Shown: one piece after another, positions 2,369-62,154 of the stretch
Position numbering within the stretch: the stretch's first letter is position 1
How the letters are laid out: each line of letters opens with the position of its first letter
Assembly (NCBI GenBank): GCA_044892525.1
Contig: CM097885.1
Location: 13,394,001-13,458,000 of the forward strand
DNA from: Schmidtea polychroa
Taxonomy: Eukaryota
DNA length: 64,000 nucleotides
Reading direction: 5' to 3'
Notes under the pieces: generated by a model
Databases searched by the model: none
The model's input: the letters and a program-made list of their open reading frames with translations, nothing else
What the model was told of the DNA's origin: nothing
Program-made: the position numbers and the translations under genes

Positions 2369-3260
2369 TTGCTGGCATCAGTATCTAAAATGAACTCCTT
2401 TCTCAGATCCGGAAAGCATAGGATCGGTGCCATTGTGAGTGCTATCTTCAATCCCTCGAATACGTTATTTGTTTCTTCAGTCCATTTCAGTTTTTTGTTA
2501 TTCGGACCGCTACATAATTGTTCTAACATCCTTACTTTCTTTGCATACTCACTAATGAATCTTCTATAATAATTGCAAATGCCTAGAAAGCTTCGAAGTT
2601 TCTTTACGCAACTGGCTTCCCAAAGTTTTGTATAGCCTGAATCTTAGAAGGATCGGTCTGTATTCCTTCTTTACTGATTATGTGTCCTAAGAATCTGATT
2701 TCTTTCTGTATTATTTGACACTTTTCTGGGTTAATATTTAGTCCTGCTTTCTCGCTCGCTTTTAATACTTCACTGAGTATTGTATAATGGTTTTCTTTAC
2801 TACTCGAATAAATCAGAATATCATCCAAATACACCATTGCTCCATTTATTTTGCATATTACCTTTGTCATCATTTCCTGGAACGTACATGGTGCTGCAGC
2901 AATTCCGAACGCCATACTTTTGATACAGTATTGCCCTTTCTTTGTTGAGAAGGCTGTTTTCTCTTGCGCTTCTGTATCTAACTCCACTTGGTTATATGCA
3001 TTACCAAGTTCGATTGACCTAAAAAACGGATCTTCCTAACAAATCTAAATTCTCGTCTATGCTTGGCATTGGAAATGCCTGCCTCTCTGTTACTGTGTTC
3101 AGCTGTCTGAAATCCAAGCATAGCCTAATATCTCTTTTCTCTTTTTTCCATACGCAAATTAACGGCGTGTTCCATGGGGAGTTGCATTTCCGTATAATCC
3201 CGTTTTCGTACAAATTTTGTATTGCTTCTTCAATTTTTGTTTTCAAATTTAATGGTTGAC
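2369..3260 (-). pseudogene. Ty3/Gypsy pol fragment (RT and start of RNase H), frameshifted and split by a hAT insertion
   Basis: SPWNTPLICVWKK, RLCLDFRQLN, MAFGIAAAPCTFQ, YLDDILI, FLGHIIS, FILDTDAS motifs across ORFs 3019-3246, 2604-2987, 2311-2529. Confidence 0.93.
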
Positions 3261-4924: not shown

Positions 4925-5454
4925 ATTTTAGACAACGATATATTTTTAATTTATATAATATATTGATATATTTTTATATATATAAGGCTATATAAATAAT
5001 ATAAAAAAATTTCATGATAAATTTATATACTAATATACTGTAACTGTACTATAATTTTACTTTTAGGGACATATTTAGATGAAGGCTGTTTTTGTTAATT
5101 TTTATAAATATATAATTGTATACATTTTCTATATATACACCTTGTTAAGTCTCGTAGGTATTTTCTTCCTATTTATTATTCCACCACGTAATTTCCTCCT
5201 GTGTCCATACGTCTCCAACAGACCTTTTGCTCGGCTCTGTTATCTAGAACGGTTGTTGTGGTAACACTGATATTACGTCAATTATTCTTAGTTATCCAAT
5301 AGTTTGTTCTAAGATGGATGTTTTTAAGTCAGCTAAAAGTCCATCGTTTTTAAAACCTACTGTAATAACACAGTAATCAACATAAGTAGTATGATGTGAG
5401 CTCCCCAGAACATGAGCTCCCCGCGACACATATACCCCCCCCCCGGGAAAAAAA

Positions 5455-6640
5455 AATTTTTAGAACGATGCCACATATTTTTAGAACTATTACGTAATCA
5501 ATGCCTAATATTTTTAGAACGATGCCTAATATTTTTAGAACTATTACGTAATTTTTTTAAATTAATTGGCCGGGCGGTGACCTACTTTTTTTCTTCCCAA
5601 AAATTAATGTTCCCACCAACAGATTTTATTGAACGATACCTCATCTTAAACCTCAGTCCAAGACCTTTCGAATGAGCTATAGGTATTTTATATATCTTTA
5701 ATAGTTTTAATGTTATTAACAATTGATGACCATCATCTTTTCAACGTTAAATTATTATTATTATTCAAAATATTATTAATTGGCCCAGCGGTGACCTACT
5801 TTTTTTCATCCCAAAAATTAATGTTCCCACCAACAGATTTTATTGGACGATACCTCATCTTAAAGCATAGTCCAAGACCTTTCAAATGAGCTATTGAAGG
5901 TATCATCATCATTAATATTAACAAAGAGAATGACTCACTCAACGATGCCTATTATTTTTAGAATGGTACCTATTATTTTTAGAACGATGCCTAATATTTT
6001 TAGAATGATTACGTCATAATTTTAGAACGATGCATAATATTTTTAGAATGATTACGTCATAATTTTAGAACGATGCCTAATATTTTTAGAACGATGCCTA
6101 ATATTTTTAGAATGATGCCTAATATTTTTAGAATGATTACGTCATAATTTTAGAATGATGCCTAATATTTTTAGAACGATGCCTAATATTTTTAGAACGA
6201 TGCCTAATATTTTTAGAACGATGCCTAATATTTTTAGAACGATGCCTATTATTTTTAGAATGATGCCTAATATTTTTAGAATGATTACGTCATAATTTTA
6301 GAATGATGCCTAATATTTTTAGAACGATGCCTATTATTTTTAGAATGATGCCTAATATTTTTAGAATGATTACGTCATAATTTTAGAACGATGCCAAATA
6401 TTTTTAGAACGATGCCTAATATTTTTAGAACGATGCCTCTTATTTTTAGAATGATTACGTCTTACTTTTAGAACGATGCCTAATATTTTTAGAACGATGA
6501 CTCATACAATGACTCATCACATTTTTAGAACGATGACTCATACGATGACTCATCATATTTTTAGAACTAATATTTTTAGAACGATGCCACATATTTTAGA
6601 ACTATTACGTAATCGAAGCCTAATATTTTTAGAACTAATA
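5455..6640. repeat. Subterminal tandem array of ~20-21-bp units (mirrored at about 18120-19330)
   Basis: Units TTTTTAGAACGATGCCTAATA interspersed with TTTTAGAATGATTACGTCATAA; a ~110-bp direct repeat at about 5565-5680 and 5780-5895. Confidence 0.92.
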
Positions 6641-6856
6641 ATTTTGTTTTAATTATCGATTACATAATAATTTAATTTTGTTTAAATCGTTGATTATATA
6701 ATTTGTTTAAATCATTGATTATATAATTTTTTGTTTTAATTATCGAATACGTAATAATATAATTTGTTTAAATCGTTGATTACATATTATTATTTTTTAA
6801 TTTTCAATATTTTCTTTTAAAATATTAACGCCCGTGTGGAAGATGTTATTTTCAAA

Positions 6857-6913
<57 letters not shown>

Positions 6914-7427
6914 TGCAATTATTCATAAAACTTAATTTCTACATCACTTTCATGATTTTCAACATTTTCATCATTTGCATGAATATTTTAATATTTTTCA
7001 ATATTTTTCAATATTTCTTTATTATTATTAAATTATTATTTTTACAGTTATTTTGAAAGTTTTTCATCTTATTATTATTATTAATATTTTCAAAGTTATT
7101 TTCAAAGAATTATTATTATTATTTGCAAAGTTCTAATTATTATTTTTTTTTAGAAGTTTCATTATTATTATTTACTTACATATTCATAAAACTTAATTTC
7201 TACGTCAATTTCAGGATTTTCAACATTTTCATCATTTGCATTTTTTAATAATTATCAATTTTTTCATAATTTTCTACATTTTCAATATTTTCACGATTTT
7301 CAACATTTTCATGATTATTTCAGGAACTTTTTCATCAAATATTGTTCAAAGTATTATTTTCAAAGAATTATTTTCAAAGTTTTAATCAATATTATTATTA
7401 TTAATATTATTATTATGATTATTATTA

Positions 7428-7514
7428 TATATACTCCGAGTTTATCCGACAAGATATTCTGTCCCCCTATGGGTATTGCTCACAAGGGTACTACTCACAT
7501 TCAACATGTCGCAA
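7428..7514. repeat. 87-bp dispersed internal module, copy 1 (others 7871-7957, 9952-10038, inverted partial 11741-11839; all mirrored in the right arm)
   Basis: TATATACTCC(G/T)AGTTTATCCGACAA(G/A)ATATTCTGTCCCCCTATGGGTATTGCT...CAACATGTCGCAA. Confidence 0.9.
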
Positions 7515-7536
7515 ATTATTTTCAAATACAATTTCA

Positions 7537-7585
<49 letters not shown>

Positions 7586-8940
7586 GCAAATATTAGTCAA
7601 AAACATAAAATATTTTTACACATACACACACAACCCATTAACAATTATTATTATCAATATTAGTGAAAACCTAAATATTTTTTATACAACCCATTAAACT
7701 TTATTATTATTATTATAATTAGTCAAAAACATAAAATATTATTTACACCCTAAGTTATGGGGTAGAGAATTATTATATGTTTGCAATATTCTGTGTTTGC
7801 CTTTACACGAAGTTGACAATAATTTTACACACACACATTCTATATACACATACCTTGTTTAACATGGGTGTATATACTCCTAGTCTATCCGACAAAATAT
7901 TCTGTCCCCCTATGGGTATTGCTCATATGGGTACTAGTCACACTCAACATGTCGCAAGGGTTTTCGAGTTTAAAGCATATTATGGTTTATTAAGGTTAGT
8001 AAATAAAACTTATAACACCTACTATTTTTAATAATATTTAAACGATAAAAATCAAGACAAGAGAGGACAAGGCAAAGTTTATGCATTTAGTATTGCCAGG
8101 CCTAATGAGCAGTGACCAAATATCTGTGCCTGAAAGACACGGTGGATATTTGTTCGCGTCCACAAGGGTCGTCTGTGCCTCCCCCAAGTGGGGTCAGAAG
8201 AACCTGGGCATTATAGCTTTCCGTACGGAACATTACGCCTAGCATGGGTAGTCAACTACCAGCACATTCGAAACGTATAATTTCAAAATACATGCGTCAT
8301 TGGCACTATAACCAAATTAATTAATGTTTTCACTAACACAAATATATATTTACAGAGGCCTCCCACTAGTTAGATTACAACCGCCCACCACGACGATCAG
8401 CTTGTAAATATATATTAATTAAGGGATAAAGAGGACCCACCCAACCCTATTATATTTAATTTACAAATTTTTCTCGCTCTTCTGCTGGTAATCTATCTCA
8501 AAATTATCATCTCCATCAGGCCATTTGGAATACATCTTGCAAATTGGACGTATTTCTTAGTTTCTGATGCGGTGTCAACTATCATTGCTAAAATTTAAAA
8601 GCCATTAACTTACAGATGTTATTTATCATTTTATCGTCAGAAATTAAATTCTACCTGACTATTAGGCAACTGTTATTTGTGGTATACTTTTTCAATGACA
8701 TTTCCCAACATAAAACACAGATACCTAAATATAATATATTTATTTTAAAGAATTAATTCATGTCTTACATTATTAATAATATTCTTCAGGTGTAACGAAT
8801 ATTTTACAATATCTAATTGTTAAAACATCGGTTTTCCCATTTTTCTTGACATTCGTTGAAAGAAAGTTTACATAATTTAAGTCTGATAAGTAAACATTCA
8901 TGTTGAAGGACACCTACAATCAGCTAATTCATTTAAAAAA

Positions 8941-9205
8941 TCCAGAACATAACTCCTTTAGTGTTTCACCATTTTATCTGGTTCATCTTCCTCATAATCA
9001 TATAATTCATGTTTTAATAAGAAATCTCTAAATCTAAAAACTATAACTCCTTTAGTGTTTCACCATTTTGTCTGGTTCATCTTCTTCATAATCATATAAT
9101 TCATGTTTTAATAAGAAATCTCTAAATCCAGAACATAAGTCTTTTAGTGTTTCACCATTTTGTCTGACTCATCTTCTTCATAATCATATAATTCATTTTC
9201 TTCAT
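8941..9205 (-). repeat. Three ~92-94-bp tandem units with acidic coding-like content (mirrored at about 15545-15810)
   Basis: Each unit reads ELYDYEEDE(P/S)DKM in one frame; the frame is not maintained between units. Confidence 0.8.
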
Positions 9206-12200
9206 TACTAAGTAAAATAATTAAAATATTGTAGTAAATTCTTTATTTACTTACTTTATGGATACTAAAACGAAAGAAATAAAGTTATATCATAATTATA
9301 TTTAATTAATTTAAATTTAAATAATTTAAATTTAGTATTTAAACATATTTAAACAATTTAGTTATTTAAGCATATTTAAACATTATTATATAGTATTTAT
9401 AAAATATTATAATATTATAATTTTATGTATTCTAAATTTATTAATAAATACAGTATAATTTTATATAATATTATAATATTATGTACACTTATATATCCTT
9501 CATTTAATTTTTTAAATTCAAAAATTTATAATGAAGATTTTTTGAATTAAAAAATATTCTGTTAGTATTTCCATGCAGAAAACAACGAATTCAATAATTA
9601 AAATCTTAATTTTCATGTTGTTAGGGTTGTGGCCAGAAGTTAATCGCCATCTAATCGTTTGTTCTCAATTTCGCTCATTTTTGTTCAAAACATTCAGGAG
9701 AGTTGTTATCTGGAAAGTTTCTTTTAGCTCAGCTTTCTTTAAACACTCACGGCATTCTTGAAAGATGTGACACTGGAAATAAATTAACAATGGGTGGTCT
9801 TGCATACATGTTGTTGGTTTGAACTGTTGATTTATTTTAGAAATATGTATATTAAAAACATTTAAGGTATCATTCAGTAAAATAATATAGTATTTTTGAG
9901 TATTTTTTAGTTGATTTATAAATAACAGTATTTTGATATATCAATAAAGACCATATACTCCTAGTTTATCCGACAAAATATTCTGTCCCCCTATGGGTAT
10001 TGCTAGCAAGGGTACTGGTCACATTCAACATGTCGCAAGGGTATATTAATCATTTAGAAATTCTTAGGTAATTTAGTGAGATGATCGTGAATATTTTAAA
10101 TGTAACTTTACACTTATGTCGAGCGACTAATTTATTGGTTAACTTTGTAGTCATTTAAAGCAAAAATTAATTTATTCATCTAATGTTCGTTACAATAGTT
10201 AATAATATGAGAAAACATGGTCATTATTCATTGATAATTTTAAATTCTTTATCATTTGGAGTAAATTTGTTTGAGGCAAAAATATTTAAAGGAGTCATAA
10301 TAGAAATATGGTTATCATTTATCCAATTAAGGGGCTTATTAGTTAAAAATATATATTCATATAGGGTTACAATTATTTTCTAATTTAATTATATGATCAT
10401 TGGGCGTAGTATATCTTTGCGAGAAATTTAAGATGTTTGAGTAACCAAAACATGGATATTTTGTACGATAAATTTATGAATATTGGTTAATTTAGTCATT
10501 TAAAATAATATTTAGCAAAGGTAATTTGGCAAAATATCATTTATCCATCCGATAACAATATTCCTTCAATAGATATTCAACCGATTTAATTTCTAATTAA
10601 AATCATAAAATTTCTTCAATAAAGATCAATTTTCTTTAGCTGTTGTCGATTTCCAACTTTTAAGTCAATATTTCTCAAGTTTTGTCACTGATGTCCCCAC
10701 AATGAATAAAATAACTTCTTAAGTAAAATAATTTAAAGCAATAACCTTTGATATCAATTAATTCTAAAGATTTCAAATATTTCATTGTGAAAACCAAGTA
10801 AATTGATCATTAACCCTAAACGACTTAATAAAACAGTGGATAATTAATAAAAAACTGGTTCTAAAACATAAATCTAAATTACTGTGCAATAACATTCATC
10901 ACAACCTAATAAACCTCTAAAACGATATAATTTCACAGGAACTATTATTAATTCATAGCTAAATACTGACTATTTCCCTTTAAAATTTACCAATAAGAAC
11001 ATTGTCGATTTAAATAGAGATTTCAAAAATTTCCACCTTAACCGATCCCTCACCAAATATTTCTATCATTTTAAACACCTTAAAAATCATCTATTACCAT
11101 CTTAACCAACCGACTTTAATATATCAGACCTTTAATATATCAATTCTCTTAAAATCCATAGAAAATTCTTCAAAATATGAATTTTATTTAATTGTTACAG
11201 ACATCCTTCCATTGAAATAATTTAGTATCTAAATTCATGTAGTAAGAGCCCATTAAAAAATCAAAATTTACTAAAATCAATATTTTCTACAAATATTTCA
11301 CCACATTTACCATCAAATACCTAACTAGAGATGAAATATATCGATTGATCATAATTCTTCATCGATTCAGCTAATTATATAGCAATTATAACGTGATATA
11401 TCTTTCAAAATCACAAATTTCAGTATATTTTACAATAATTTTTACAAAAATTAAATAATAATAACTTGATTATTGTAAAAACTCTAATTATTAACCTAAC
11501 TGTCATTAAAAATATTTTTATTTAAAAGTAAATTTAAAAACAAGTCAATAAAATATAGCAAATTATCAAGAAATTAATTAAATTTGTCTTAGAATTAACA
11601 CTAAAACGTTAAATTTCAAAATATTCTTTCAATTATTCACAAAAAGGTTAGTAATAATGTTAGTAAAATCCCGCTAACTCTAAAAATTACCAATGAATTT
11701 AATGCTAAATAATAACCAAAAATTTGCCTAAATAAAACACACCAGTACCTTTACGACCAGTACCCTTACGAGCAGTACCAATTGTGAACAGTACCCATAG
11801 AGGGAGAAAATATCTTGTCGGATAAACTCAGAGTATATATAATAAAACGAATTAACAATAACTCCATCAAATTAAATCAGTCAAATTAACACAAATTTTG
11901 ATAAAAAATCTTATTCTAAAATGGTAAGAAGCGTAAAGTCGAAAGATAATTTTAATAACACAGAGATAAATTAACAATATTATTCTCAGGTGGTAAGAAT
12001 CTTCATTAAAGTTAGGAAATTATAAGAACTACCAATTGCTATAAAATATTTAAACGAATTTAGTTTTATTGTTTTATAACTTTCGGTTATATTTGAGTGA
12101 GTTTTCGATTGTCCCTTTTAACTTTCAGTGCTCATTTTCATTAAAAAGAGTAATGTATCTTAAATTATCTTTTAGAATATTTGTTTTTGAAAATGAAATA

Positions 12201-15200
12201 TTTAGTTTAAAATAGTAAATTTAATAATAAATTGTTAATATTAAAGGACTTAAATAATAATTTAAAATATGAACTTATCATAATTACTCTGTCAAATACC
12301 CTTCACGGTTTCTTATGTAATAAAATATTCATTTGGGGATTAAATACTTTATTAAATAAAAGTTTATCACATTATTAAAATATTTTAATTCGTTAGTAGC
12401 TCATATAATAGAAATATTTTTATTTATATATCCTCATCACTTATAGCCGCCGACTCTCGATTTCCCACTAATTATTATCATTTATATTCTCCCGGCAAAT
12501 ATTTCTTTTAAAATTGTATTAAATATTTTTTATTAAAGTGAACGTTTTTTATGAATTTTTATGAAATTTATGAATTTTATGAAATAATTTTAAATAAATA
12601 CAATTAATATATATCCATGCCACTTCTCTGTATATTTTCATTGACCTTCCATAATCTAATAATGAATAATTCTAACACTTATTTTAACCCCTTTGAAGTT
12701 TATTATTAATTTATGACAGAATAATAAATAATTTCCTAACTTTAATGAAGATTCTTACCACCTGAGAATAATATTGTTAATTTATCTCTGTGTTATTAAA
12801 ATTATCTTTCGACTTTACGCTTCTTACCATTTTAGAATAAGATTTTTATCAAAATTTGTGTTAATTTGACTGATTTAATTTGATGGAGTTATTGTTAATT
12901 CGTTTTATTATATATACTCTGAGTTTATCCGACAAGATATTTTCTCCCTCTATGGGTACTGTTCACAATTGGTACTGCTCGTAAGGGTACTGGTCGTAAA
13001 GGTACTGGTGTGTTTTATTTAGGCAAATTTTTGGTTATTATTTAGCATTAAATTCATTGGTAATTTTTAGAGTTAGCGGGATTTTACTAACATTATTACT
13101 AACCTTTTTGTGAATAATTGAAAGAATATTTTGAAATTTAACGTTTTAGTGTTAATTCTAAGACAAATTTAATTAATTTCTTGATAATTTGCTATATTTT
13201 ATTGACTTGTTTTTAAATTTACTTTTAAATAAAAATATTTTTAATGACAGTTAGGTTAATAATTAGAGTTTTTACAATAATCAAGTTATTATTATTTAAT
13301 TTTTGTAAAAATTATTGTAAAATATACTGAAATTTGTGATTTTGAAAGATATATCACGTTATAATTGCTATATAATTAGCTGAATCGATGAAGAATTATG
13401 ATCAATCGATATATTTCATCTCTAGTTAGGTATTTGATGGTAAATGTGGTGAAATATTTGTAGAAAATATTGATTTTAGTAAATTTTGATTTTTTAATGG
13501 GCTCTTACTACATGAATTTAGATACTAAATTATTTCAATGGAAGGATGTCTGTAACAATTAAATAAAATTCATATTTTGAAGAATTTTCTATGGATTTTA
13601 AGAGAATTGATATATTAAAGGTCTGATATATTAAAGTCGGTTGGTTAAGATGGTAATAGATGATTTTTAAGGTGTTTAAAATGATAGAAATATTTGGTGA
13701 GGGATCGGTTAAGGTGGAAATTTTTGAAATCTCTATTTAAATCGACAATGTTCTTATTGGTAAATTTTAAAGGGAAATAGTCAGTATTTAGCTATGAATT
13801 AATAATAGTTCCTGTGAAATTATATCGTTTTAGAGGTTTATTAGGTTGTGATGAATGTTATTGCACAGTAATTTAGATTTATGTTTTAGAACCAGTTTTT
13901 TATTAATTATCCACTGTTTTATTAAGTCGTTTAGGGTTAATGATCAATTTACTTGGTTTTCACAATGAAATATTTGAAATCTTTAGAATTAATTGATATC
14001 AAAGGTTATTGCTTTAAATTATTTTACTTAAGAAGTTATTTTATTCATTGTGGGGACATCAGTGACAAAACTTGAGAAATATTGACTTAAAAGTTGGAAA
14101 TCGACAACAGCTAAAGAAAATTGATCTTTATTGAAGAAATTTTATGATTTTAATTAGAAATTAAATCGGTTGAATATCTATTGAAGGAATATTGTTATCG
14201 GATGGATAAATGATATTTTGCCAAATTACCTTTGCTAAATATTATTTTAAATGACTAAATTAACCAATATTCATAAATTTATCGTACAAAATATCCATGT
14301 TTTGGTTACTCAAACATCTTAAATTTCTCGCAAAGATATACTACGCCCAATGATCATATAATTAAATTAGAAAATAATTGTAACCCTATATGAATATATA
14401 TTTTTAACTAATAAGCCCCTTAATTGGATAAATGATAACCATATTTCTATTATGACTCCTTTAAATATTTTTGCCTCAAACAAATTTACTCCAAATGATA
14501 AAGAATTTAAAATTATCAATGAATAATGACCATGTTTTCTCATATTATTAACTATTGTAACGAACATTAGATGAATAAATTAATTTTTGCTTTAAATGAC
14601 TACAAAGTTAACCAATAAATTAGTCGCTCGACATAAGTGTAAAGTTACATTTAAAATATTCACGATCATCTCACTAAATTACCTAAGAATTTCTAAATGA
14701 TTAATATACCCTTGCGACATGTTGAATGTGACCAGTACCCTTGCTAGCAATACCCATAGGGGGACAGAATATTTTGTCGGATAAACTAGGAGTATATGGT
14801 CTTTATTGATATATCAAAATACTGTTATTTATAAATCAACTAAAAAATACTCAAAAATACTATATTATTTTACTGAATGATACCTTAAATGTTTTTAATA
14901 TACATATTTCTAAAATAAATCAACAGTTCAAACCAACAACATGTATGCAAGACCACCCATTGTTAATTTATTTCCAGTGTCACATCTTTCAAGAATGCCG
15001 TGAGTGTTTAAAGAAAGCTGAGCTAAAAGAAACTTTCCAGATAACAACTCTCCTGAATGTTTTGAACAAAAATGAGCGAAATTGAGAACAAACGATTAGA
15101 TGGCGATTAACTTCTGGCCACAACCCTAACAACATGAAAATTAAGATTTTAATTATTGAATTCGTTGTTTTCTGCATGGAAATACTAAGAGAATATTTTT

Positions 15201-17164
15201 TAATTCAAAAAATCTTCATTATAAATTTTTGAATTTAAAAAATTAAATGAAGGATATATAAGTGTACATAATATTATAATATTATATAAAATTATACTGT
15301 ATTTATTAATAAATTTAGAATACATAAAATTATAATATTATAATATTTTATAAATACTATATAATAATGTTTAAATATGCTTAAATAACTAAATTGTTTA
15401 AATATGTTTAAATACTAAATTTAAATTATTTAAATTTAAATTAATTAAATATAATTATGATATAACTTTATTTCTTTCGTTTTAGTATCCATAAAGTAAG
15501 TAAATAAAGAATTTACTACAATATTTTAATTATTTTACTTAGTAATGAAGAAATTGAATTATATGATTATGAAGAAGATGAGTCAGACAAAATGGTGAAA
15601 CACTAAAAGACTTATGTTCTGGATTTAGAGATTTCTTATTAAAACATGAATTATATGATTATGAAGAAGATGAACCAGACAAAATGGTGAAACACTAAAG
15701 GAGTTATAGTTTTTAGATTTAGAGATTTCTTATTAACACATGAATTATATGATTATGAGGAAGATGAACCAGATAAAATGGTGAAACACTAAAGGAGTTA
15801 TGTTCTGGATTTTTTAAATGAATTAGCTGATTGTAGGTGTCCTTCAACATGAATGTTTACTTATCAGACTTAAATTATGTAAACTTTCTTTCAACGAATG
15901 TCAAGAAAAATGGGAAAACCGATGTTTTAACAATTAGATATTGTAAAATATTCGTTACACCTGAAGAATATTATTAATAATGTAAGACATGAATTAATTC
16001 TTTAAAATAAATATATTATATTTAGGTATCTGTGTTTTATGTTGGGAAATGTCATTGAAAAAGTATACCACAAATAACAGTTGCCTAATAGTCAGGTAGA
16101 ATTTAATTTCTGACGATAAAATGATAAATAACATCTGTAAGTTAATTGCTTTTAAATTTTAGCAATGATAGTTGACACCGCATCAGAAACTAAGAAATAC
16201 GTCCAATTTGCAAGATGTATTCCAAATGGCCTGATGGAGATGATAATTTTGAGATAGATTACCAGCAGAAGAGCGAGAAAAATTTGTAAATTAAATATAA
16301 TAGGGTTGGGTGGGTCCTCTTTATCCCTTAATTAATATATATTTACAAGCTGATCGTCGTGGTGGGCGGTTGTAATCTAACTAGTGGGAGGCCTCTGTAA
16401 ATATATATTTGTGTTAGTGAAAACATTAATTAATTTGGTTATAGTGCCAATGACGCATGTATTTTGAAATTATACGTTTCGAATGTGCTGGTAGTTGACT
16501 ACCCATGCTAGGCGTAATGTTCCGTACGGAAAGCTATAATGCCCAGGTTCTTCTGACCCCACTTGGGGGAGGCACAGACGACCCTTGTGGACGCGAACAA
16601 ATATCCACCGTGTCTTTCAGGCACAGATATTTGGTCACTGCTCATTAGGCCTGGCAATACTAAATGCATAAACTTTGCCTTGTCCTCTCTTGTCTTGATT
16701 TTTATCGTTTAAATATTATTAAAAATAGTAGGTGTTATAAGTTTTATTTACTAACCTTAATAAACCATAATATGCTTTAAACTCGAAAACCCTTGCGACA
16801 TGTTGAGTGTGACTAGTACCCATATGAGCAATACCCATAGGGGGACAGAATATTTTGTCGGATAGACTAGGAGTATATACACCCATGTTAAACAAGGTAT
16901 GTGTATATAGAATGTGTGTGTGTAAAATTATTGTCAACTTCGTGTAAAGGCAAACACAGAATATTGCAAACATATAATAATTCTCTACCCCATAACTTAG
17001 GGTGTAAATAATATTTTATGTTTTTGACTAATTATAATAATAATAATAAAGTTTAATGGGTTGTATAAAAAATATTTAGGTTTTCACTAATATTGATAAT
17101 AATAATTGTTAATGGGTTGTGTGTGTATGTGTAAAAATATTTTATGTTTTTGACTAATATTTGC

Positions 17165-17213
<49 letters not shown>

Positions 17214-17836
17214 TGAAATTGTATTTGAAAATAATTTGCGACATGTTGAATGTGAGTAGTACCCTTGTGAGCAATACCCATAGGGGGACAGAATATCTTG
17301 TCGGATAAACTCGGAGTATATATAATAATAATCATAATAATAATATTAATAATAATAATATTGATTAAAACTTTGAAAATAATTCTTTGAAAATAATACT
17401 TTGAACAATATTTGATGAAAAAGTTCCTGAAATAATCATGAAAATGTTGAAAATCGTGAAAATATTGAAAATGTAGAAAATTATGAAAAAATTGATAATT
17501 ATTAAAAAATGCAAATGATGAAAATGTTGAAAATCCTGAAATTGACGTAGAAATTAAGTTTTATGAATATGTAAGTAAATAATAATAATGAAACTTCTAA
17601 AAAAAAATAATAATTAGAACTTTGCAAATAATAATAATAATTCTTTGAAAATAACTTTGAAAATATTAATAATAATAATAAGATGAAAAACTTTCAAAAT
17701 AACTGTAAAAATAATAATTTAATAATAATTAGGAAATATTGAAAAATATTGAAAAATATTAAAATATTCATGCAAGTGATGAAAATGTTGAAAATCATGA
17801 AAGTGATGTAGAAATTAAGTTTTATGAATAATTGCA

Positions 17837-17905
<69 letters not shown>

Positions 17906-19533
17906 TTTGAAAATAACATCTTCCACACGGGCGTTAATATTTTAAAAGAAAATATTGAAAATTAAAAAATAATAATATGTAATCAACGATTTAAACAAAT
18001 TATATTATTACGTATTCGATAATTAAAACAAAAAATTATATAATCAATGATTTAAACAAATTATATAATCAACGATTTAAACAAAATTAAATTATTATGT
18101 AATCGATAATTAAAACAAAATTATTAGTTCTAAAAATATTAGGCTTCGATTACGTAATAGTTCTAAAATATGTGGCATCGTTCTAAAAATATTAGTTCTA
18201 AAAATATGATGAGTCATCGTATGAGTCATCGTTCTAAAAATGTGATGAGTCATTGTATGAGTCATCGTTCTAAAAATATTAGGCATCGTTCTAAAAGTAA
18301 GACGTAATCATTCTAAAAATAAGAGGCATCGTTCTAAAAATATTAGGCATCGTTCTAAAAATATTTGGCATCGTTCTAAAATTATGACGTAATCATTCTA
18401 AAAATATTAGGCATCATTCTAAAAATAATAGGCATCGTTCTAAAAATATTAGGCATCGTTCTAAAAATATTAGGCATCATTCTAAAATTATGACGTAATC
18501 ATTCTAAAAATATTAGGCATCATTCTAAAAATAATAGGCATCGTTCTAAAAATATTAGGCATCGTTCTAAAAATATTAGGCATCGTTCTAAAAATATTAG
18601 GCATCGTTCTAAAAATATTAGGCATCATTCTAAAATTATGACGTAATCATTCTAAAAATATTAGGCATCATTCTAAAAATATTAGGCATCGTTCTAAAAA
18701 TATTAGGCATCGTTCTAAAATTATGACGTAATCATTCTAAAAATATTATGCATCGTTCTAAAATTATGACGTAATCATTCTAAAAATATTAGGCATCGTT
18801 CTAAAAATAATAGGTACCATTCTAAAAATAATAGGCATCGTTGAGTGAGTCATTCTCTTTGTTAATATTAATGATGATGATACCTTCAATAGCTCATTTG
18901 AAAGGTCTTGGACTATGCTTTAAGATGAGGTATCGTCCAATAAAATCTGTTGGTGGGAACATTAATTTTTGGGATGAAAAAAAGTAGGTCACCGCTGGGC
19001 CAATTAATAATATTTTGAATAATAATAATAATTTAACGTTGAAAAGATGATGGTCATCAATTGTTAATAACATTAAAACTATTAAAGATATATAAAATAC
19101 CTATAGCTCATTCGAAAGGTCTTGGACTGAGGTTTAAGATGAGGTATCGTTCAATAAAATCTGTTGGTGGGAACATTAATTTTTGGGAAGAAAAAAAGTA
19201 GGTCACCGCCCGGCCAATTAATTTAAAAAAATTACGTAATAGTTCTAAAAATATTAGGCATCGTTCTAAAAATATTAGGCATTGATTACGTAATAGTTCT
19301 AAAAATATGTGGCATCGTTCTAAAAATTTTTTTTCCCGGGGGGGGGGGGGGGGGGAGGGGGTATATGTGTCGCGGGAGCTCATGTTCTGGGGAGCTCACA
19401 TCATACTACTAACATAGTCGAAATTTTAAGATCGAATTTTTTGTAAAAGCATAATATGCTTCTCTAATTTCGGGGTCCTAAAAATTGGGGACCCCGGCTT
19501 TAGCCCGATCAGCCCCCCCTTAATCCGCTACAG

Positions 19534-19580: not shown

Positions 19581-20199
19581 TAAATACTTTTTCGATAAAA
19601 ATATTTTTAAAATTTAACAAAATTTCTAATTAAAACCTTTAGAATCTTTCATCTTCCTCATAATTATTATTGGAATTTTCTTGATTAATGAAAAATTTAA
19701 AATTTGTAAATAATGAAAGAAACGTTACAAACCAAAACGGCTGATCCAAAGATTAGGCCAAAGCAAGAACTTTGAGAGTTTAAAAAATAGCCATTTTATT
19801 TCCTTTATTGCCTAATAATATGTCAAGATTGTAGTTTAAAAATCAGAGGTTATTTATGATGTTTGATGGTGGGTGTTTGAATGTTGGTATGTGTGCATGT
19901 TTGCAGCTATTCTGTGTCAATATTACACAATGAAGAGCTTTATATTTTTGATACAACCCTATTTAATAGCATAATGAAGTATTTTAATATCACAACGTTT
20001 CTCCTGATTTTGCAAAACTATTCACCAATACATAGATGCTTAATTCGCTCAAGATGAAAAGTTTTTTTATCCTTAAAAATAAATTGACTCCGTTTCATCT
20101 ATTAAGTAGTAGGATGTGTGCCTGCCATATAATTTTGTAACATGCTGTAACCCTGCTGTTATAATTTTGTAACATGTAAGAATTTACCTTTAATCTCTA

Positions 20200-22200
20200 A
20201 GATGCTCATATTTTGTTAAGTTGTTGATTGTCAGCGATTTCAGAAGTAGATACAGACTCAATAGAACAACAACGATGACGGCCACCTCATTAAAACGAAA
20301 TATTAATATTATTTAATTGTGAGTCTGATTAGGTAATTATGAGGGTTATGTAGAATATTATATTACATAACTACTCGTCGGAGGACTATGTAATACACAC
20401 AGGGGCCCCTTGTTTAAGTAAGCTCATAGTATGCTACTAGGACACTTTATATCAACCAAAAGAATGTGTTTTCTCTCATTATCAGTGATTAATATGTCGA
20501 CTCATTGCTTGGTTTCCGGCCCTAAGGAACATATGTGACCAAAACCCCAATGAGGAATAGATCATTCAAACAGTCATATATTTTATTTACGTATTCAATG
20601 TAATGTTCAAGAGCAAGAGTTTTATGAGTTTTACAAGTATGCAGAGCATGTGACATTGTTTCCTCTTTACAATGGCATCTTCTACATAATCTATTTTCCC
20701 CTTTCCACATTTTCCCGTTAATACTGATCATGTATTAGTTTGAGGTCTATGTATAAAATTACACGCAAAATTAATTTATACTAATTTGCCTATTTCCCGT
20801 CTCATCAAATAAGCAATATAGAGAGCTAAATGTAAAATTCTAGAGATGGATTGGGGAAATTCTTTAATCAGAACAGACGTTCCACCTGATCTAGTCATTA
20901 TATGTAGCCGTGGCTGACTATCAACGACTTGAAAAAATAGTTTGATAATGTGATTCTTTTCGAAAAATTTAATTACTGTTCAAGCTTTGGTAAAAAGCGT
21001 TATTTTGCTAGTATCATCTGACATACCTTCACACTCATTTATCCTTGAAGCGATGGCTTTTCTCCCAAATTTTGGCTGATTACAAATTTGAAAGAATCAA
21101 GGTTTATCTTTCTGGTATAGTCAGACATTAAGGTAAAAACGCCGAAAGAAGTGTGTCATAGTCTGTGTATGGTACTCATCATAAAGCCCAGTACACCTGG
21201 TTTATAAAATTAACTTATTTCAGAATTCTGAGGCAAATTTAATATTTTTCTCAAGTGAATACGTAGTCTTCTTGGAGTGGAAGTAGCATTAGTCTTGATC
21301 TCTCTTGTTTTAAATGGAAAAATTAGACGAGAGTGTAAAAAGAATTTAAATGCTTTAATATTTTGTCAACCGAGCAGCTCAGAATCAGCAAGTTTCTTAA
21401 TTGCACAAATGACCTTATTTAAAATCTCACAAAGGCCCTGATTAAGTTCTTCACCAACCAGGACATCAAGATAGTGGTAAACTTTCTAGGAGACTGATTT
21501 TTAATCATGAATCTATCCACAAAGGCTTTACTGCCAATATGTATGTTTGGAACCTTCTCTGAATCGTATTTAAAACCTATCTCAGCGATAGTTTCAACAG
21601 TTCTGTTTGTAATTATTTGCCAGTCAGACGCGTTCAATCAATGCAATATAGCCAGAGTAAGAAAGTATCTGTATATGTGAATCGTCAATCTTAAAAGGAG
21701 CTATATCAGATTTACTTAGTGCTACCAAAACAGGAAATAAATAAAATCATCGAGAGAGGCCATTCTAGCTTGGTACCTTATTTGATTGGAAAATTCGGTG
21801 TAAGAACCGAACCACAGCTGTGTAAATATCTGTGTAAATCGAAGGTTATGCAACTTATTGGTGTATAAAGTGGTGTGAAAGCTTTGTAAACCTATTAGCC
21901 CTTCTTTCCCATATAACGAACAACCTGATAACTCAAAACAATTTGTTCATAGTTGAAAAGGTTACTTTAAAACAATTCAAAGATATTCGCTATATCATTG
22001 ATATTATTCCTATTATTCTGTTAAACTTAACCTTAGTTATATCTTTGGCTCTCATTCTGATTGCGTCAATCAAAGACTAATGAGAATCGGGAAAAGTTGA
22101 CCAATTATCTGAAAAGCTTCATTTAAAAAACAAAAATTCACTTCCAAAGTACACAAGACATTTCTCCTCGTCCTTTCTTCTAAGGATCTGATTTATTACT
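20200..22200 (-). mobile_element. Decayed non-LTR retrotransposon with restriction-like endonuclease (R2/NeSL-type group)
   Basis: CRRCHCKEETMSHALHTC CCHC knuckle followed by VDILI...LLVDIKCP (PD-(D/E)xK-like); degenerate RT-like sequence upstream. Boundaries approximate. Confidence 0.72.
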
Positions 22201-25680: not shown

Positions 25681-25962
25681 ATTATTATTATGAAAATAAA
25701 GAATCAATATAAGCTTTTTTTGTGATACCTATTGTAGGTTCCAATAACAGGTTGAACTTTTGGCTCTCTTCAGTGTTTATAATTTTGAAAAGAAAACTCT
25801 AAAAGTAATCGGATGCACTTGTAAACAGTTTCTGTGTATCGACTAATGTTTTAGTCCGCAGAGGTGATTATAATTTTTCATAAGCCATGTTTACAAGTTT
25901 ACAAATTTTTCTGTGACCAAGTTAATTTGCAAGTGATGTGATTTCTAGTGTACCAGGAAAAG

Positions 25963-26103
25963 TATGCAATAGAGTTGAATAAGCAATATTGTATACTTAC
26001 CTGGCGCGAAGAGAAATTTCTGCGTCTCCTACATAGTACTAATGAGAGCCAAAAACTCGAAACTAGTCTACTATTGGGATTTGCACTGGGCATCACAAAG
26101 CTT
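25963..26103 (+). repeat. U1-5'-motif / hairpin / hammerhead repeat, copy A (core mutated)
   Basis: ATACTTACCTGGC at 25993; ATAGTA-CTAATGA-GAGCCAAAAACTC-GAAA-CTAG-TC-TACTAT at 26033-26074; homologous to 48970-49110. Confidence 0.85.
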
Positions 26104-26162
26104 ATACTGTTTATTTTATTCAAGTGAGACATCCGACAAAAAAATGTTACACCATTACTTTA

Positions 26163-26198
<36 letters not shown>

Positions 26199-26259
26199 CA
26201 TTATTATTATTAAAATATTATAGTTATGTTTAAAATTATTAATTTCCACCATACCTTAG

Positions 26260-37502: not shown

Positions 37503-38468
37503 TAACTGCGAAATATAACATTATCTATAATCTAAAAAAATCAATAAATATATATTATAGGAACACACAAACTTACCTGTGTGTAAAAGTTTAATGCTGC
37601 GAAAGTTAACATATTTATTATAGGAATCTAAAAAGTGAGAGAAAATAATTAAGCATACAAACACAGCACACATAATGAAAAATATATACAAAATTAAGTA
37701 AAGTGTTTTTTATGCGAAATTAACATTGATTAACATATACCTAAGTAATTAACATATCAATATTTTTAAATTATTTAAAAAGTTATGTACAAAAAAACTT
37801 TTGAATCAGATTCTGACTGCTCTACTTTGAGATTTAGGGAAAAAGAAGAAATTAAATCGTAAGATTTAATTATAAAATAATTTAGAATATAAAATTTCTT
37901 TAGATTTGCAGATATTGAAGAAGGTCCTTCGAAATCTTTGAATTTGCAGGAAAAAATCGCAAATCGTAAATTTTAATAAATTATTTTAACAAATTAATAT
38001 TTTCATAGAATTACAGAAATAGACAAAATTCGAAAGAAGATTACAAAAACTTAAAAAATATTTTATCCATTCTTTACTAAATGTCTTAAAAAAATAAATG
38101 TTTAGTGAATACTTTATTTATTTATAATTATAAAAATATCTAACTTACATTTTTAAGAAATAAATCCAAATAAATCCAAATAAAATACCATAAAATTCCT
38201 AAAAAACACCTGAAATTTAATTATCAATGTTATATTATAAATGCTGACTAACAGTAATATTTAAGAACTTGAATAATGATCTCATAATTATATAAAATCA
38301 AAATTCAAGTCCTAAAAATTACTTAAATTCAAAAACTTACCTTAAAACGATTTTTGAAAAATTGAAAAAATGAAATTAAGTTAACATTGTCATATAATTG
38401 GTGACTCACCTCAGGTGGTGTGCACACCAACGTATATTATAGACAATGTTAACTTTCGCAGTTAGGTG
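37503..38468. mobile_element. Tc1/mariner-type non-autonomous element (~950 bp), copy 1
   Basis: TIR ...TAGACAATGTTAACTTTCGCAGTTAGGTG followed by TA; left terminus damaged; inverted homolog of 55292-56233. Confidence 0.85.
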
Positions 38469-39324
38469 TAAGCTAAATGATATATGAGCAACAGTATTGT
38501 GAATATTTGTTTGAGTTTCATTGGTTGCATGTTTAAGTATTTTGCACTTGATACAATATCACCAATTGATTTCCTTAAATTGGTCTTCGTATAGAAAAAA
38601 TTATATCATAAAATAGATTTTGTTATTGATATTTAATAATTAACTTATCACCACAAATCACTTACAATAATTATTAAATAATCTGATTATTAATTAAAGA
38701 ATTTTTTTTATATTTATTATGTAGTAATTTCTTTATTTTTCAATTAATTAACATTAATGATATTATTGCATAAAATAATCTAGAAATATGATTTTTTTAG
38801 CTGAAGTTTTTTTATCTACAACAAACTAATAAAATGAATTTATTGATAACCAGAGAAATGAAATTTATTTTTATTATTATTATTTTTTATATATAATAAA
38901 TATTCAATATATAAACAACAATATTTTATGATTGGTCTAATAATCATTTTACGACAGAATTTATTCCAAGATCTGAATAAATAAATAATTTGCATTAGTT
39001 CCAAATTTAATTATTTCCAATTATTAATTATTATTATAAAATAATTTTTAATTTGAATATTTTTTAAAGCGAAAATTAATTTATAATTTTTATTTTCATT
39101 TCATTCATTTTTCGATATAAATCATTATTTTTTTCTGTTGTACACATACTCATCACGATAACTTATTTTCAAGTCAAATTTTTTAAATTTATTTAAACTT
39201 CTTAAAATTTAAACAAACATCGCTTTTTGAATCAAATATAAAATAGTGACATGTCACAAGAGCCTTCATGTATATCAAGAAAATGTCAAGAGATGCCATT
39301 CGTGTTCATAACATTAACGGAACC

Positions 39325-40221: not shown

Positions 40222-40909
40222 CTGAACCTAGTCAAAATTGAAATTTACAACTATTCCGATGCTGGCATATTTGGTGGTTTAACGTTTGTCAACAAACACC
40301 CTGAAGTATGATCAAATGATACTAATTTGTTGTATATCGATATCAACTATTTATATGGCTGGGAATAAGGTAAAAATTACCATATTGTGATTCTTAATGG
40401 GTCCATGGCAAAAATTGATTACCAATTATTATAAGTGAATGCCACAGTGGAAATCTGGAATCATTATCGAATGGATATACTATGATTGTTCACGATAGGG
40501 ACGTGTTTTATTTGTCTGAAAATATGCTATCAATCGAAGTGTTGGAAAATATTTCTTCGACAATCTGATCTTCACAATCATTAGGTATTTAGAAAATTTG
40601 ATTTAAGTCAAGTCGTTTCAATATACATGTTGGAAAAAATAACTCCCTTCGTACCATTTCAAATATGTATGACTGAATACAGGTTCATCGCTAAATAACC
40701 AATGTAATGGTTCCAAAATATTATTAGAATTAATAATAACATAATTCTTTAATAATATCTTTATGACAGAAAATATTAATAAAGTAACAAGACATTTTTT
40801 AAAAACATTTATTTAATTACTATGTTTATACATTGACCAAACAAGACAATGTTGATCATATGTATCATTTAATGGATATTGAAATCAAATTTTATTATAT
40901 TAAATAGGT

Positions 40910-41110
40910 TTACAATATTATTATAGTTTTGCTTATCAATGGAACATGATAATGGTATCTCATGAGGTCGAAAACATTTATCTTGTTCGGTTTCACATAG
41001 ACTGCAATCCAATGTTCTCTACCAAGAGTAGATGAATCAGTGTTGGCAACTGTGGCTTGATTGTTTTTTAAATAAGGACTTTTATCTAATAAATACACAA
41101 AAAAACTCGT
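40910..41110 (-). pseudogene. Maverick/Polinton adenain-like cysteine protease remnant
   Basis: VANTDSSTLGREHWIAVYVKPNKINVFD fits the NTD-x5-G-x-HW...(Y/V)FD pattern. Confidence 0.7.
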
Positions 41111-41269
41111 TTCCCAATATTTGAGTACCAATTGATTGAAGTCAAAATCAAAGGTCAAAACCAATGTGAAAGATTTAAATTCAAGAGTTATACCACAATT
41201 CAGGTTTTTATCCAAATACCTCATATTTTTCACAATACTTTGCATATATATAGCACATTAATTATGCAA

Positions 41270-47370: not shown

Positions 47371-48760
47371 TACTTGGTATCTGATTGATAGAATTTATAT
47401 ATAATAAAACGAATCAATAATAACTATTTATTTCATACAAGTTTTACTTTGCAATAATAAGTCAGTAGTAATCAATTAAAAGAAGAATATTTTGTAAATT
47501 AAAATTAGAATTCAATTGTCTTTCATTATAATTTAAATTATCCTCAATTCCAAGTGGTGTTTTAAAGTGGTTGACAATTATTCATTTTTTGATGAAAATC
47601 ATCATTTTTGTTAAATTTAGACATTAAAAAAGGGTTTTTCTACTGATTGTAATTAAAAATATTTTTGAACACGAATAAAAAAAATTTAAAAAGCATTTGA
47701 TAAAATAGATTGAAGAATATATAGTTGATTGTAAGTATCTAATTGTTTGAGAGGTAATTAGTAAGGAGCCACTAACTTCCTACTCTATTTCTCTTTTACT
47801 TTCCTTCCTAAAATTCTTATTATTAATATTTAATTAACATGTAAACTTAAAATTTCATTTGAATTTTTCCATAATTTTGTACTTTTTTCGTATTATAAGT
47901 AAAAATAGAAATCATTTTTGAAACCTAAAATCAAATTTTTGATTAAAATTAATTTTTGAAAAGATTCATGAAAATTGATTGAGTCTTGGCTAGATGGATA
48001 TTGAAGATGGTTTTATTTTATTAAGTTTAATTTACATACTAAAATAAAAATATAAAATATAAAATAATATTTTTCCATCGCTATTGGAATAAATAAATTA
48101 AGATTGGTCAAAAAACACTCAAAAAAGTAGCCATAATAAAATTAAAATATTGATTTAAAAAATATAAACGAAGGAAAAAAAATAAAACTTAAAAATAAGA
48201 ATAAGTTGATAGTAAAATGAATACAAAACCTTGAAAAATATAATAGGACGAAAGTGTAATATTGTCAATATTGTTATGTAATTGCATATACAACTGCCAT
48301 TATTTCACATTTCAAATTTAATAATATTACATTAAAGTTTTGTCTTACGAAAGTTTATATTATAAACCATTTTTAAAAATTTAATAAAAACAGATGTGAA
48401 AACAGAAACACTTTTTGACACCTGAAACCAAATTTTGATTAAAATTATTTATTATTCAAAAATAATTTTTAAATATAATTTCTGTAAATATCTTTCCATC
48501 TTTCTATTCCAGTTCAGACTCTAAATATAATATTAATACCAAATTTAGTCTGCTATTTTCACCGAATTTCGTTCTTCATTTTGAAATTATTTTAATTGTA
48601 TAATTAGAAGCAAAATTTAATTATCTTTACTTATGCTAATCAAGTAGCAGATGTACTCGTCTAGCAAAATTAGTTTTAATTATTAAAATTTTATTGTTTT
48701 ATATATTTTAAATTCTAATATAATAATAATAATAATAATAATATTAATAATAATAATAAC

Positions 48761-48914
<154 letters not shown>

Positions 48915-48969
48915 TTGTTGTAAATTTTTTTTATGCGGATGTCTAACATTTGAATAATATAAACATTAC

Positions 48970-62100: not shown

Positions 62101-62154
62101 TTTGGATTTTATTTATAAAATTCTAAAAATTAGACTGTCACATTATGAAAATGA

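Follow-up and report, generated by a model that had tools for sequence, protein, structure and literature searches.

The window analysed here, a 64,000-nucleotide stretch of the Schmidtea polychroa genome (assembly GCA_044892525.1, contig CM097885.1, positions 13,394,001 to 13,458,000), carries a 14-kb element that is almost wholly palindromic. Self-BLAST of the window is dominated by one inverted pair, 5385-12023 against 19410-12728, with 99.1% identity over 6685 columns. The arms, 6639 and 6683 bp long, enclose a 704-bp spacer, making the element 95.0% inverted repeat. The six bases before its AGTAGT end (5379-5384) perfectly match the six that follow its ACTACT end (19411-19416), an identity expected by chance with p ~8e-4 for two flanking 6-mers at the window's base composition. 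A first-pass annotation had reported these ends, the 6-bp target-site duplication (TSD), the arm and spacer lengths and a palindromic share of about 95%, and both the self-BLAST and the flank comparison agree with it. For brevity, the palindrome and its relatives are called satellites below, and the coding Mavericks (Polintons) of the same genome helpers. The features of the locus are:

5379..5384, no strand: TSD, left copy, 6 bp
5385..12023, + strand: left arm of the whole-element inverted repeat, 6639 bp, starting with the (AGT)2 Maverick end motif
5385..6800, + strand: terminal module, ~74-87% homologous to the terminal inverted repeat (TIR) of coding type-1 Mavericks
5941..6506, + strand: 21-bp tandem array of the terminal module, left arm, 26.7 units
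7429..7500, + strand: conserved inner motif, copy 1
7872..7942, + strand: conserved inner motif, copy 2
8081..8242 (+) and 8102..8245 (-): putative short ORFs whose ends overlap the conserved island
8200..8400, no strand: most conserved core island, 0.012 substitutions per cell, gap-free, 26 copies; mirrored near 16350-16550
8938..9196, + strand: 94-bp tandem repeat of the core, 2.8 units
9953..10024, + strand: conserved inner motif, copy 3
11770..11838, - strand: conserved inner motif, copy 4, outward-pointing, ~190 bp from the spacer
12024..12727, no strand: spacer (fold-back loop), 704 bp, unique, AT-rich, boundaries constant across other copies
12728..19410, - strand: right arm, 6683 bp, terminating in (ACT)2
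12912-12980, 14726-14797, 16808-16878 and 17250-17321: mirrored motif copies, right arm
18256-18842: 21-bp tandem array, right arm, 27.7 units
19411..19416, no strand: TSD, right copy, 6 bp

The homology of the terminal module was measured between the window and the Mavericks E3, E4, E5 and E8; the module presumably acts as replication origin and integrase substrate. Helper TIRs also carry its 21-bp tandem array. The inner motif (~70-90 bp) forms the inner edge of each helper TIR, where it is found one to three times, against four times per arm in the palindrome, and the geometry of copy 4 is identical in type-1-ended and type-2-ended satellite copies. Arm against arm, there are seven clean substitutions (at 6974, 7018, 7020, 8603, 9013, 9196 and 9561) and two further apparent ones, both within a C/G homopolymer. 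The right arm has one additional 21-bp unit; an AAT repeat and a C-run differ in length by 12 and 13 bp, respectively, and two 1-bp indels lie at 5419 and 11903. The scattered substitutions, the AAT and poly-C lengths and the extra unit described in the first pass were all recovered, with the correction that the unit is 21 bp long rather than about 20.

The only stop-to-stop ORF of at least 120 aa inside the element is a low-complexity frame together with its mirror (7190-7663), and it has no Pfam match. When ORFs of coding Mavericks were compared with the element by tblastn, no PolB, integrase, ATPase or capsid ORF gave a match, and the matches obtained came from repeat- and motif-derived frames only. 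In a tblastx search for decayed coding remnants, all of the matches listed were to a satellite-containing locus, and four of the seven short ORFs tested were intact in 0 of 12 copies. The absence of Maverick genes claimed earlier is thus borne out by the ORF scan and tblastn for 5385-19410. Set beside an autonomous Maverick, the element has the ends and the 6-bp TSD and lacks the PolB and integrase genes, the ATPase, protease and capsid genes, and short TIRs. An Rfam scan of 5300-13100 gave two weak matches far under the gathering score, which we take as chance. Folding of the inner motif gave no structure signal (z -0.4 to +0.9), while the first 66 bases gave z -2.9, one value among several tests. 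The inner motif was rejected as a coding unit (pN/pS 0.91), and it was not equated with the TATA-like word that precedes helper genes, as the helper upstream sequences differ by eye. Viral contigs searched with the motif and island patterns, and metagenome contigs searched with the motif, gave 0 matches.

An exact 19-mer spanning the arm/spacer junction occurs 270 times, and its reversed control 0 times. Among 40 spacers scored out of 1990 candidates, 39 others were full-length at 95-97%; nine of the best 10 spacer matches had inverted arms of at least 2 kb, and seven of 10 positionally sampled copies were full palindromes, each with its own matching TSD. Independent insertions carry distinct TSDs with the spacer boundaries unchanged, and many satellite copies are centrally deleted. 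Elements with Maverick ends and no encoded Maverick protein have been inserted as units, with 6-bp TSDs, at hundreds of sites. This agrees with the first-pass annotation, which proposed that the palindrome was integrated as one unit and suggested searching with its ends and spacer for insertions with different TSDs. Its near-genome length was likewise upheld, satellites measuring 12.7-14.9 kb (n=12) against 15.2-16.2 kb for helpers (n=6), or 81-95% of the median helper length. Inner arms and spacers fall into subfamilies only 73-78% alike. The spacer seemed more conserved than the arms, which we attribute to ascertainment: copies chosen by their ends have spacers at 74-76%. The flanks of the palindrome, compared with the other loci analysed as a proxy for an empty site, gave no match. 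The locus is best read as a recent insertion belonging to a non-autonomous Maverick/Polinton family that lacks genes and is present in many copies.

Chimeric reads are known to produce long, nearly perfect palindromes, and the sequencing-run contigs are short, none spanning arm, spacer and arm. Contigs from run X1, possibly the assembly's own sample, nevertheless cover 30 of 30 bins including the spacer, and those from X10 cover 28 of 30. Under a second organism label, sequence from parts of the arms is present, with next to nothing of the spacer. The direct TSD, the non-identical arms and the many loci that share these spacer boundaries and differ in their TSDs exclude a fold-back chimera or misassembly at this locus. 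Together with the 270 junctions and copy-specific arm haplotypes, they leave an assembly artefact or one-off local inversion with almost no credibility. The lone local rearrangement that the annotation had named as an alternative also fails on the recurrence of palindromes genome-wide and the existence of autonomous partners.

The two arms of a copy usually resemble each other more closely than they resemble any other copy: median arm divergence is 0.14% inside one copy against 4.6% from copy to copy, and in a tree that leaves out four further copies with rearranged segments, arms pair by copy in 11 of 14 copies, the exceptions being L078, L084 and L088. Where arms differ, the differences are mostly clustered in tracts, and in some copies the arms are 1-3% apart. 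Chromosomal gene conversion could likewise keep arms alike.

Coding Mavericks with the palindrome's ends are abundant in the same genome, which contains 377 ATPase markers. They encode integrase (rve, E 1e-8), an A32 ATPase (E 2e-7), PolB and a capsid protein whose predicted fold is a double jelly-roll (pLDDT 88; Foldseek E 2e-17); this fold search matched, while a PDB sequence search with the capsid alignment returned nothing. No protease gene was identified in helpers, and a putative penton candidate is present. Helper TIRs are 0.9-1.6 kb long. The idea of Maverick-type ends on a gene-less satellite with autonomous relatives of the same termini therefore stands, the ends being common to these co-resident elements. 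End type tracks polymerase type: all four type-1-ended helpers share one PolB and all three assignable type-2-ended helpers another. The type-2 PolB matches PF03175 (E 5e-29) and is 59% identical to the type-1 PolB, which Pfam did not recognise directly. The satellite core, for its part, occurs with type-1, type-2 and a third end type. Homology between palindrome and helper is limited to ~5385-7515 and one ~70-90-bp motif; among sampled helpers, the 4.5-kb inner arm and the spacer have no other match.

At two loci, L115 (6.1 kb) and L129/130 (10.2 kb), the left end of a helper forms a palindrome flanked by a TSD, and the L115 switch point has a ~13-bp overlap. These palindromes show that Maverick ends do fold back in this genome. 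Helper-satellite hybrids under a single TSD also occur (E6 and L080/81); the L080/81 join is found at seven of the 84 junctions listed, and its counterpart in a second locus shows 99.4% identity. Three derivative families have been amplified, all of ~13-15 kb, and TSD-flanked derivatives of 3.2-10.2 kb are present as well, so integration does not require near-genome size. A copy-back origin as put forward in the first pass is supported insofar as helper-end fold-backs exist; for the palindrome itself, a direct copy-back of a present helper is not supported. No sampled helper is the source of its inner 4.5 kb or its spacer, and its subfamilies are diverged, which points to an old lineage rather than a fresh copy-back. 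Because those helpers contain nothing equivalent to the inner arm and spacer, a fold-back origin of the family is argued by analogy only: an ancestral element most likely gave rise to the palindrome when one of its ends folded back. Such a fold-back is visible freshly in the helper-derived palindromes and is not traceable for the gene-less family.

We consider it probable (roughly 0.75) that the element is a helper-dependent satellite resembling a snap-back defective genome, one that replicates by strand displacement and snap-back and is inserted in trans. The helper's protein-primed PolB would start at either end and displace one strand which, being 95% self-complementary, would snap back to give a long duplex closed by a loop of 0.7 kb, restoring the duplex origin. 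Template switching between the arms would reset them to near-identity, and the helper's retroviral-type integrase would insert the product. Satellite and helper DNA may recombine when they meet during replication, so that the core would exchange its end modules and with them its helper polymerase. In what is the weakest step, packaging in the helper capsid would keep the length at 13-15 kb.

Ends, TSDs and copy number would be accounted for equally well by a Foldback-like passenger that host machinery excises or copies and the Maverick integrase only inserts, with no PolB replication or packaging and with intrachromosomal gene conversion keeping its arms similar, as happens in palindromes of chromosomes. 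Patchy arm differences can indeed be conversion tracts; the copies with arms 1-3% apart, however, suggest that conversion in place is inefficient. This account also leaves unexplained the match of end type to PolB type among helpers, the existence of helper ends that have folded back and integrated, the amplification of a helper-satellite hybrid and the clustering of lengths just below that of the helper, and we judge it unlikely. Somewhat less probable again is that the conserved island (~8080-8400) contains a gene, small or spliced, or an RNA that gives the satellite an active role such as helper interference or steering. No other part of the core is as conserved, the island is indel-free across 26 copies, and ORFs of 53 and 47 aa are open in 12 of 12 copies. 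Open frames are nonetheless to be expected among such closely related copies in a GC-richer region. The pN/pS values of 0.55 and 0.40 come from just 23 and 18 variants, against 0.75-1.08 in shifted frames; one variant introduces a stop into the 47-aa ORF; Pfam, Atlas and Rfam lend no support, and the island folds with z = -0.8.

A host-retained defence element, whose read-through giant hairpin would feed small RNAs against Mavericks, fits the geometry: transcription across the spacer would yield kilobases of dsRNA including helper TIR sequence, and motif copies that start with a TATA-like word point inward. Hundreds of dispersed young insertions and many central deletions look selfish rather than domesticated, however, and silencing would reach helper TIRs only, because no coding sequence is held in common; we regard this explanation as very improbable.

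Very long, internally repetitive inverted arms, a short centre and central deletions are also seen in Foldback/Galileo transposons, which move by cut-and-paste and have other ends and 7-11-bp TSDs, unlike the palindrome with its Maverick ends and 6-bp TSD. A possible parallel is offered by the defective and inverted-repeat genomes of adenovirus and the hairpin or palindromic derivatives of yeast pGKL1, which are end-duplicated palindromes of strand-displacement replicons, replicated in trans; they are laboratory, extrachromosomal forms without integrase or TSD. Kapitonov and Jurka reportedly described multi-kb TIRs for Polinton-1N1_DR and -2N1_DR in 2006, and if this is right, the palindrome architecture is already catalogued. 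These zebrafish elements are named as non-autonomous, with near-genome length (Polinton-1N1_DR 15,469 bp, -2N1_DR 11,092 bp and -4N1_DR 10,436 bp; PMC9341512, supplement 3) and high copy number, the comparison being with a table that gives neither TIR length nor gene content (PMC9341512). Among the titles and abstract openings found in our literature search, none described palindromic non-autonomous Mavericks; key older papers lay outside it, so absence from print is not established. Nor did the search find a description of end swapping, hybrids or fresh fold-backs of Mavericks.

With autonomous Mavericks/Polintons the palindrome shares (AGT)2//(ACT)2 ends, one of two published definitions beside (AG)3//(CT)3 (PMC8097293), the 6-bp TSD, terminal-module homology and a length within published ranges (12.7-24.6 kb; 13-25 kb; PMC8097293, PMC10748475). 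It differs in being a palindrome without PolB, integrase, ATPase or capsid genes and in its 6.6-kb inverted repeats, against TIRs of 46-1447 bp in an intact vertebrate set or 100-1500 bp (PMC8097293, PMC10748475). Butterfly polinton variants without PolB (bioRxiv 10.1101/2025.02.07.637071) and transpovirons (PMC5499653) are similarly helper-dependent, Polinton-related and bounded by TIRs, but they have retained genes and are not palindromic over their full length; the butterfly TIRs are ~2 kb long and gene-bearing, and 'palindrom' is absent from the preprint's main text. Copy-back and snap-back defective viral genomes, known mainly as transient by-products of negative-strand RNA viruses (PMC13506859), are likewise self-complementary, carry terminal signals at both ends and do without genes of their own, a geometry shared by L115 and L129/130, whereas the palindrome is a DNA element, integrated, inherited, and old enough to have formed its subfamilies.

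A wider reading, which we offer as a tentative possibility, is that Mavericks support recurring, capsid-sized palindromic satellites that swap end modules and helpers. The system of this genome would be split into separately amplified pieces of ~13-15 kb: the gene-less palindrome, a palindrome carrying only PolB, twice (~140 elements), and an ATPase/integrase/capsid hybrid without PolB. Taken together, these might be a multipartite community of virus and satellites, inherited in an animal germ line, with strand-displacement and snap-back replication of Mavericks recorded in its copies. Maverick replication and particles are inferred rather than observed, the abstract of PMC8097293 noting that particles are yet to be seen. 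Surveys seeded on co-located integrase and PolB, such as that one, would miss palindrome families of this kind. A satellite with cis signals only marks what Mavericks need in cis, namely the terminal module, with the repeated inner motif as a probable and a size window as a possible further requirement. The fold-backs and hybrids found alongside it hint at the way in which Maverick-ended elements copy themselves. The identity of arm to arm serves both as an insertion clock and as a record of template switching. Since end type pairs with PolB type and the satellite uses both, origin specificity can be tested purely by comparison. For the host, hundreds of 14-kb palindromes amount to megabases of fragile, hairpin-forming DNA.

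The first-pass annotation had described a palindrome with Maverick ends, a 6-bp TSD and no Maverick genes, and all of these features were confirmed. Inverted repeat makes up 95.0% of the element, in two arms around a 704-bp spacer:

Window 5385-12023: left arm, inverted copy of 12728-19410, 99.1% identity
Window 12728-19410: right arm, inverted copy of 5385-12023, 99.1% identity

The termini are (AGT)2//(ACT)2, the commonest vertebrate Maverick end in the available text of PMC8097293, and a perfect direct 6-bp TSD lies on both flanks (chance match p ~8e-4). Between the arms there are 7 clean substitutions, length differences in the AAT and C runs, two 1-bp indels and one extra unit of 21 bp; the scattered substitutions and AAT/poly-C differences reported earlier stand, and the extra unit given as a ~20-mer is corrected. 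The sole long ORF is a low-complexity frame, and tblastn with the ORFs for PolB, integrase, ATPase and capsid of coding helper Mavericks found no Maverick gene or remnant in the element.

Other features of the window were recorded alongside. An RVT_1 reverse-transcriptase fragment lies left of the element (2604-3035(-), E 2e-27), and a segment with Maverick-like end words lies 0.7 kb to its right (20105-20375). Small repeats at 25793-26241, 47396-47763 and 48763-49110 recur at two fetched loci, L118 and L042. An inverted repeat pair of 92% identity (37503-38470 / 55290-56229; further coordinates 40228-41263), its copies 18.7 kb apart, encloses short degraded helper-related PolB and capsid fragments. 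At 61131-64000 a second-lineage Maverick end and PolB continue past the window (87-93% DNA and 90% protein identity to L031/L032), with an inverted short copy of that end motif at ~61405.

In the 781-Mb genome, where the window is G000:C1:13394001-13458000, the terminal 116 bp returned 1422 candidates (40 scored) and the spacer 1990 (40 scored), with 39 other full-length matches at 95-97% among those scored. A 19-mer over the arm/spacer junction occurs 270 times, its reversed control 0 times. We sampled loci in three ways: paired ends (8), best spacer matches (10) and every tenth of the first 100 listed junctions (10). TSDs matched in 8/8 paired-end loci, which comprised 2 satellite-like palindromes, 1 palindrome with another Maverick nested inside, 1 hybrid, 3 coding Mavericks and 1 coding Maverick with a palindrome nested inside. 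Inverted arms of at least 2 kb were found in 9/10 best spacer matches. The junction sample held full palindromes with matching TSDs at 7/10 loci, plus one hybrid, one other-centre palindrome and one partial copy; the 270 junctions and these palindromes with their own TSDs supply the further insertions that the annotation had suggested looking for. Within the first 34 Mb of contig C1, 38 pairs of type-1 ends, one class of element ends, carried the junction marker in 5 cases, the helper ATPase marker in 9, both in 1 and neither in 23; among six marker-free pairs whose centres were fetched, satellite core (inner arm plus spacer) was present at 73-89% in 5 and a palindromic centre in 3. With 1210 type-1 ends in the genome, these results point to a few hundred satellite copies, a rough figure since exact markers miss diverged copies.

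Several loci combine or modify these elements. At L031-L033 (G000:C4:1619567-1644719) a satellite copy contains a second Maverick lineage encoding DJR, an integrase with a PLA2-like domain, A32 ATPase and PolB, and at L048/49 a type-1 helper is inserted in a satellite spacer. At L041/42 a helper contains a divergent 15.5-kb palindrome with different ends, 67-80% identical to the window element's inner arm and spacer; the fold point of its family lies deeper, within sequence that is spacer in the window element. A further variant of the centre, L092/93, has ends of a third type. Shortened satellites (L114, L124-L128, L062/63; 3.2-8.9 kb) have central or one-sided deletions whose varied breakpoints are consistent with palindrome instability. 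Run X15, on organism B, matched arm parts at ~9500-11000 and near 11300, 11800 and 12950 with almost no spacer, suggesting a related family in a second species label.

The search for an autonomous Maverick with the same termini succeeded. Helpers sharing the satellite's ends are 15.2-16.2 kb long (n=6), with TIRs of ~0.7-1.6 kb, and the count of their ATPase marker is 377. Their products include an A32 ATPase, an rve integrase that has a chromodomain, a TBP-like protein (L036:2589-3065(-) and equivalents; PF00352, E 8e-15), a large PolB and a candidate penton; no protease gene was identified in them. For a 427-aa ORF with 121 homologues, the predicted structure (pLDDT 88) is that of a double jelly-roll capsid protein, with a Foldseek E of 2e-17 to an iridovirus capsid. 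The type-2 PolB matches PF03175 (E 5e-29); the type-1 PolB, with no Pfam match of its own, is 59% identical to it, the N-terminal ~200 aa aligning poorly.

End type and polymerase vary together: type-1-ended coding elements carry one and the same PolB in 4/4 cases, and type-2-ended elements another in 3/3 assignable cases (a fourth is unassigned). The left gene blocks of the two types (L040-L043 versus L096-L101) are 90-97% identical in DNA while TIR and PolB differ, which we read as a swap of a PolB-plus-ends module. Type-1, type-2 and a third kind of end are all found on the satellite core; in an unrooted tree, read by position and not by a formal clade test, four type-2-ended copies lie close together amid type-1-ended ones, which fits a recent end swap. 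In the accessible part of a 2026 preprint (10.64898/2026.10.13.758929), pPolB and the DDE integrase are argued to act on one end sequence.

Satellite and helper have in common only about 5385-7515 and a motif of ~70-90 bp; helper TIRs each have 1-3 copies of it at their inner edge, whereas a satellite arm has 4, three inward and one outward. The motif shows no RNA-structure or coding signal; packaging, protein binding and promoter are candidate roles. The remaining arm and spacer have no match in the sampled helpers and their subfamilies are only 73-78% alike, which indicates that the family is old and the window copy not a fresh copy-back of a present helper, contrary to the direct copy-back origin first proposed.

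Maverick ends do fold back. L115 (6.1 kb) and L129/130 (10.2 kb) are fresh fold-backs: TSD-flanked palindromes of a helper left end. Their unique centres measure 0.8 and 1.4 kb, and the L115 switch point has a ~13-bp overlap. Inverted ATPase-marker pairs numbered 4 among 100 listed, 1 of which was checked; the three others lie near C1:4.17 Mb, 179.58 Mb and 210.41 Mb. Satellite-helper hybrids also exist under a single TSD. In L080/81 and L137, a satellite arm and half spacer lead through an AAT run into the helper block that encodes the TBP-like protein, ATPase, integrase and capsid, PolB being absent; this join accounts for 7/84 C1 junctions among the matches listed and is 99.4% identical where checked.

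A second palindromic family of ~12-13 kb has its own end type (281 end matches, ~140 elements) and was sampled at three loci:

L116/117: G000:C1 near 84 kb
L118/119: G000:C1 near 62.80 Mb
L120/121: G000:C1 near 32.47 Mb

It encodes only a PolB, once per arm, as ORFs of 249 and 870 aa (PF03175, E 4e-31; 56% to both helper PolBs), with no other arm ORF of at least 170 aa. A type-2 Maverick end forms its centre of ~0.3-0.4 kb, these loci lack the inner motif, and TSDs match by eye in 2/3.

We compared a 2.1-kb inner-arm segment across 14 copies, 4 of 18 being left out for rearrangement. The median arm difference was 0.14% within a copy versus 4.6% between copies, arms paired by copy in 11/14 (in L078, L084 and L088 one arm lay nearer another copy), and substitutions fell mostly in tracts on a near-identical background, two copies differing throughout. 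Therefore one arm has been repeatedly re-copied from the other within each lineage, with patches from other copies; replication and chromosomal gene conversion both fit.

The satellite shares helper ends, integrates as a unit with a 6-bp TSD, reaches high copy number and has no known genes; its arms are reset, its ends swap, and fold-back and hybrid products occur. We favour, at a probability of about 0.75, a helper-dependent satellite replicated with snap-back by helper PolB and integrated by helper integrase. Following what is known of protein-primed strand-displacement replicons, helper PolB would start at either end, the displaced strand would snap back to restore a duplex origin, template switches would equalize the arms and generate fold-backs and hybrids, and helper integrase would insert the product. 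Adenovirus, pGKL and Foldback are parallel systems. A Foldback-like route, using the integrase only and with gene conversion keeping the arms alike, is accommodated by the arm data but leaves the fold-backs and the end-PolB pairing unexplained; we consider it unlikely. A small gene hidden in the conserved island at window 8200-8400 seems slightly less likely again. We give little weight to a host defence element or an artefact. Within helper dependence, packaging of the satellite is the least certain part: complete copies measure 12.7-14.9 kb (n=12, median 13.8) versus a helper median of 15.7 kb, three amplified derivative families fall in the satellite range, and smaller TSD-flanked forms of 3.2-10.2 kb exist.

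Large non-autonomous Polintons are already known, reportedly with multi-kb TIRs in Kapitonov and Jurka's 2006 work. In its testable features the satellite is a non-autonomous Maverick. Unlike an autonomous one, it lacks PolB, integrase, ATPase and capsid, and its TIRs are four times the maximum of ~1.5 kb given in the available portions of PMC8097293 and PMC10748475. It would work like the snap-back defective genome in the available part of PMC13506859, yet is inherited. Large non-autonomous zebrafish Polinton families measure 15.5, 11.1 and 10.4 kb, TIR lengths not being stated in the accessible material (PMC9341512, supplement 3), and Polinton-1N1_DR is likewise named without TIR length in that of PMC9341505. 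Gene-less Maverick palindromes are not described in the available text of PMC6431247, PMC11296320 and PMC3014272, nor were they found by our literature search, beyond whose reach lay older work such as Kapitonov and Jurka 2006. The present analysis adds the pairing of end type and PolB type, both types being used by a single core, the integrated fresh fold-backs and the amplified hybrid. Because of these, Maverick replication, so far a model only, becomes open to study from genome data.
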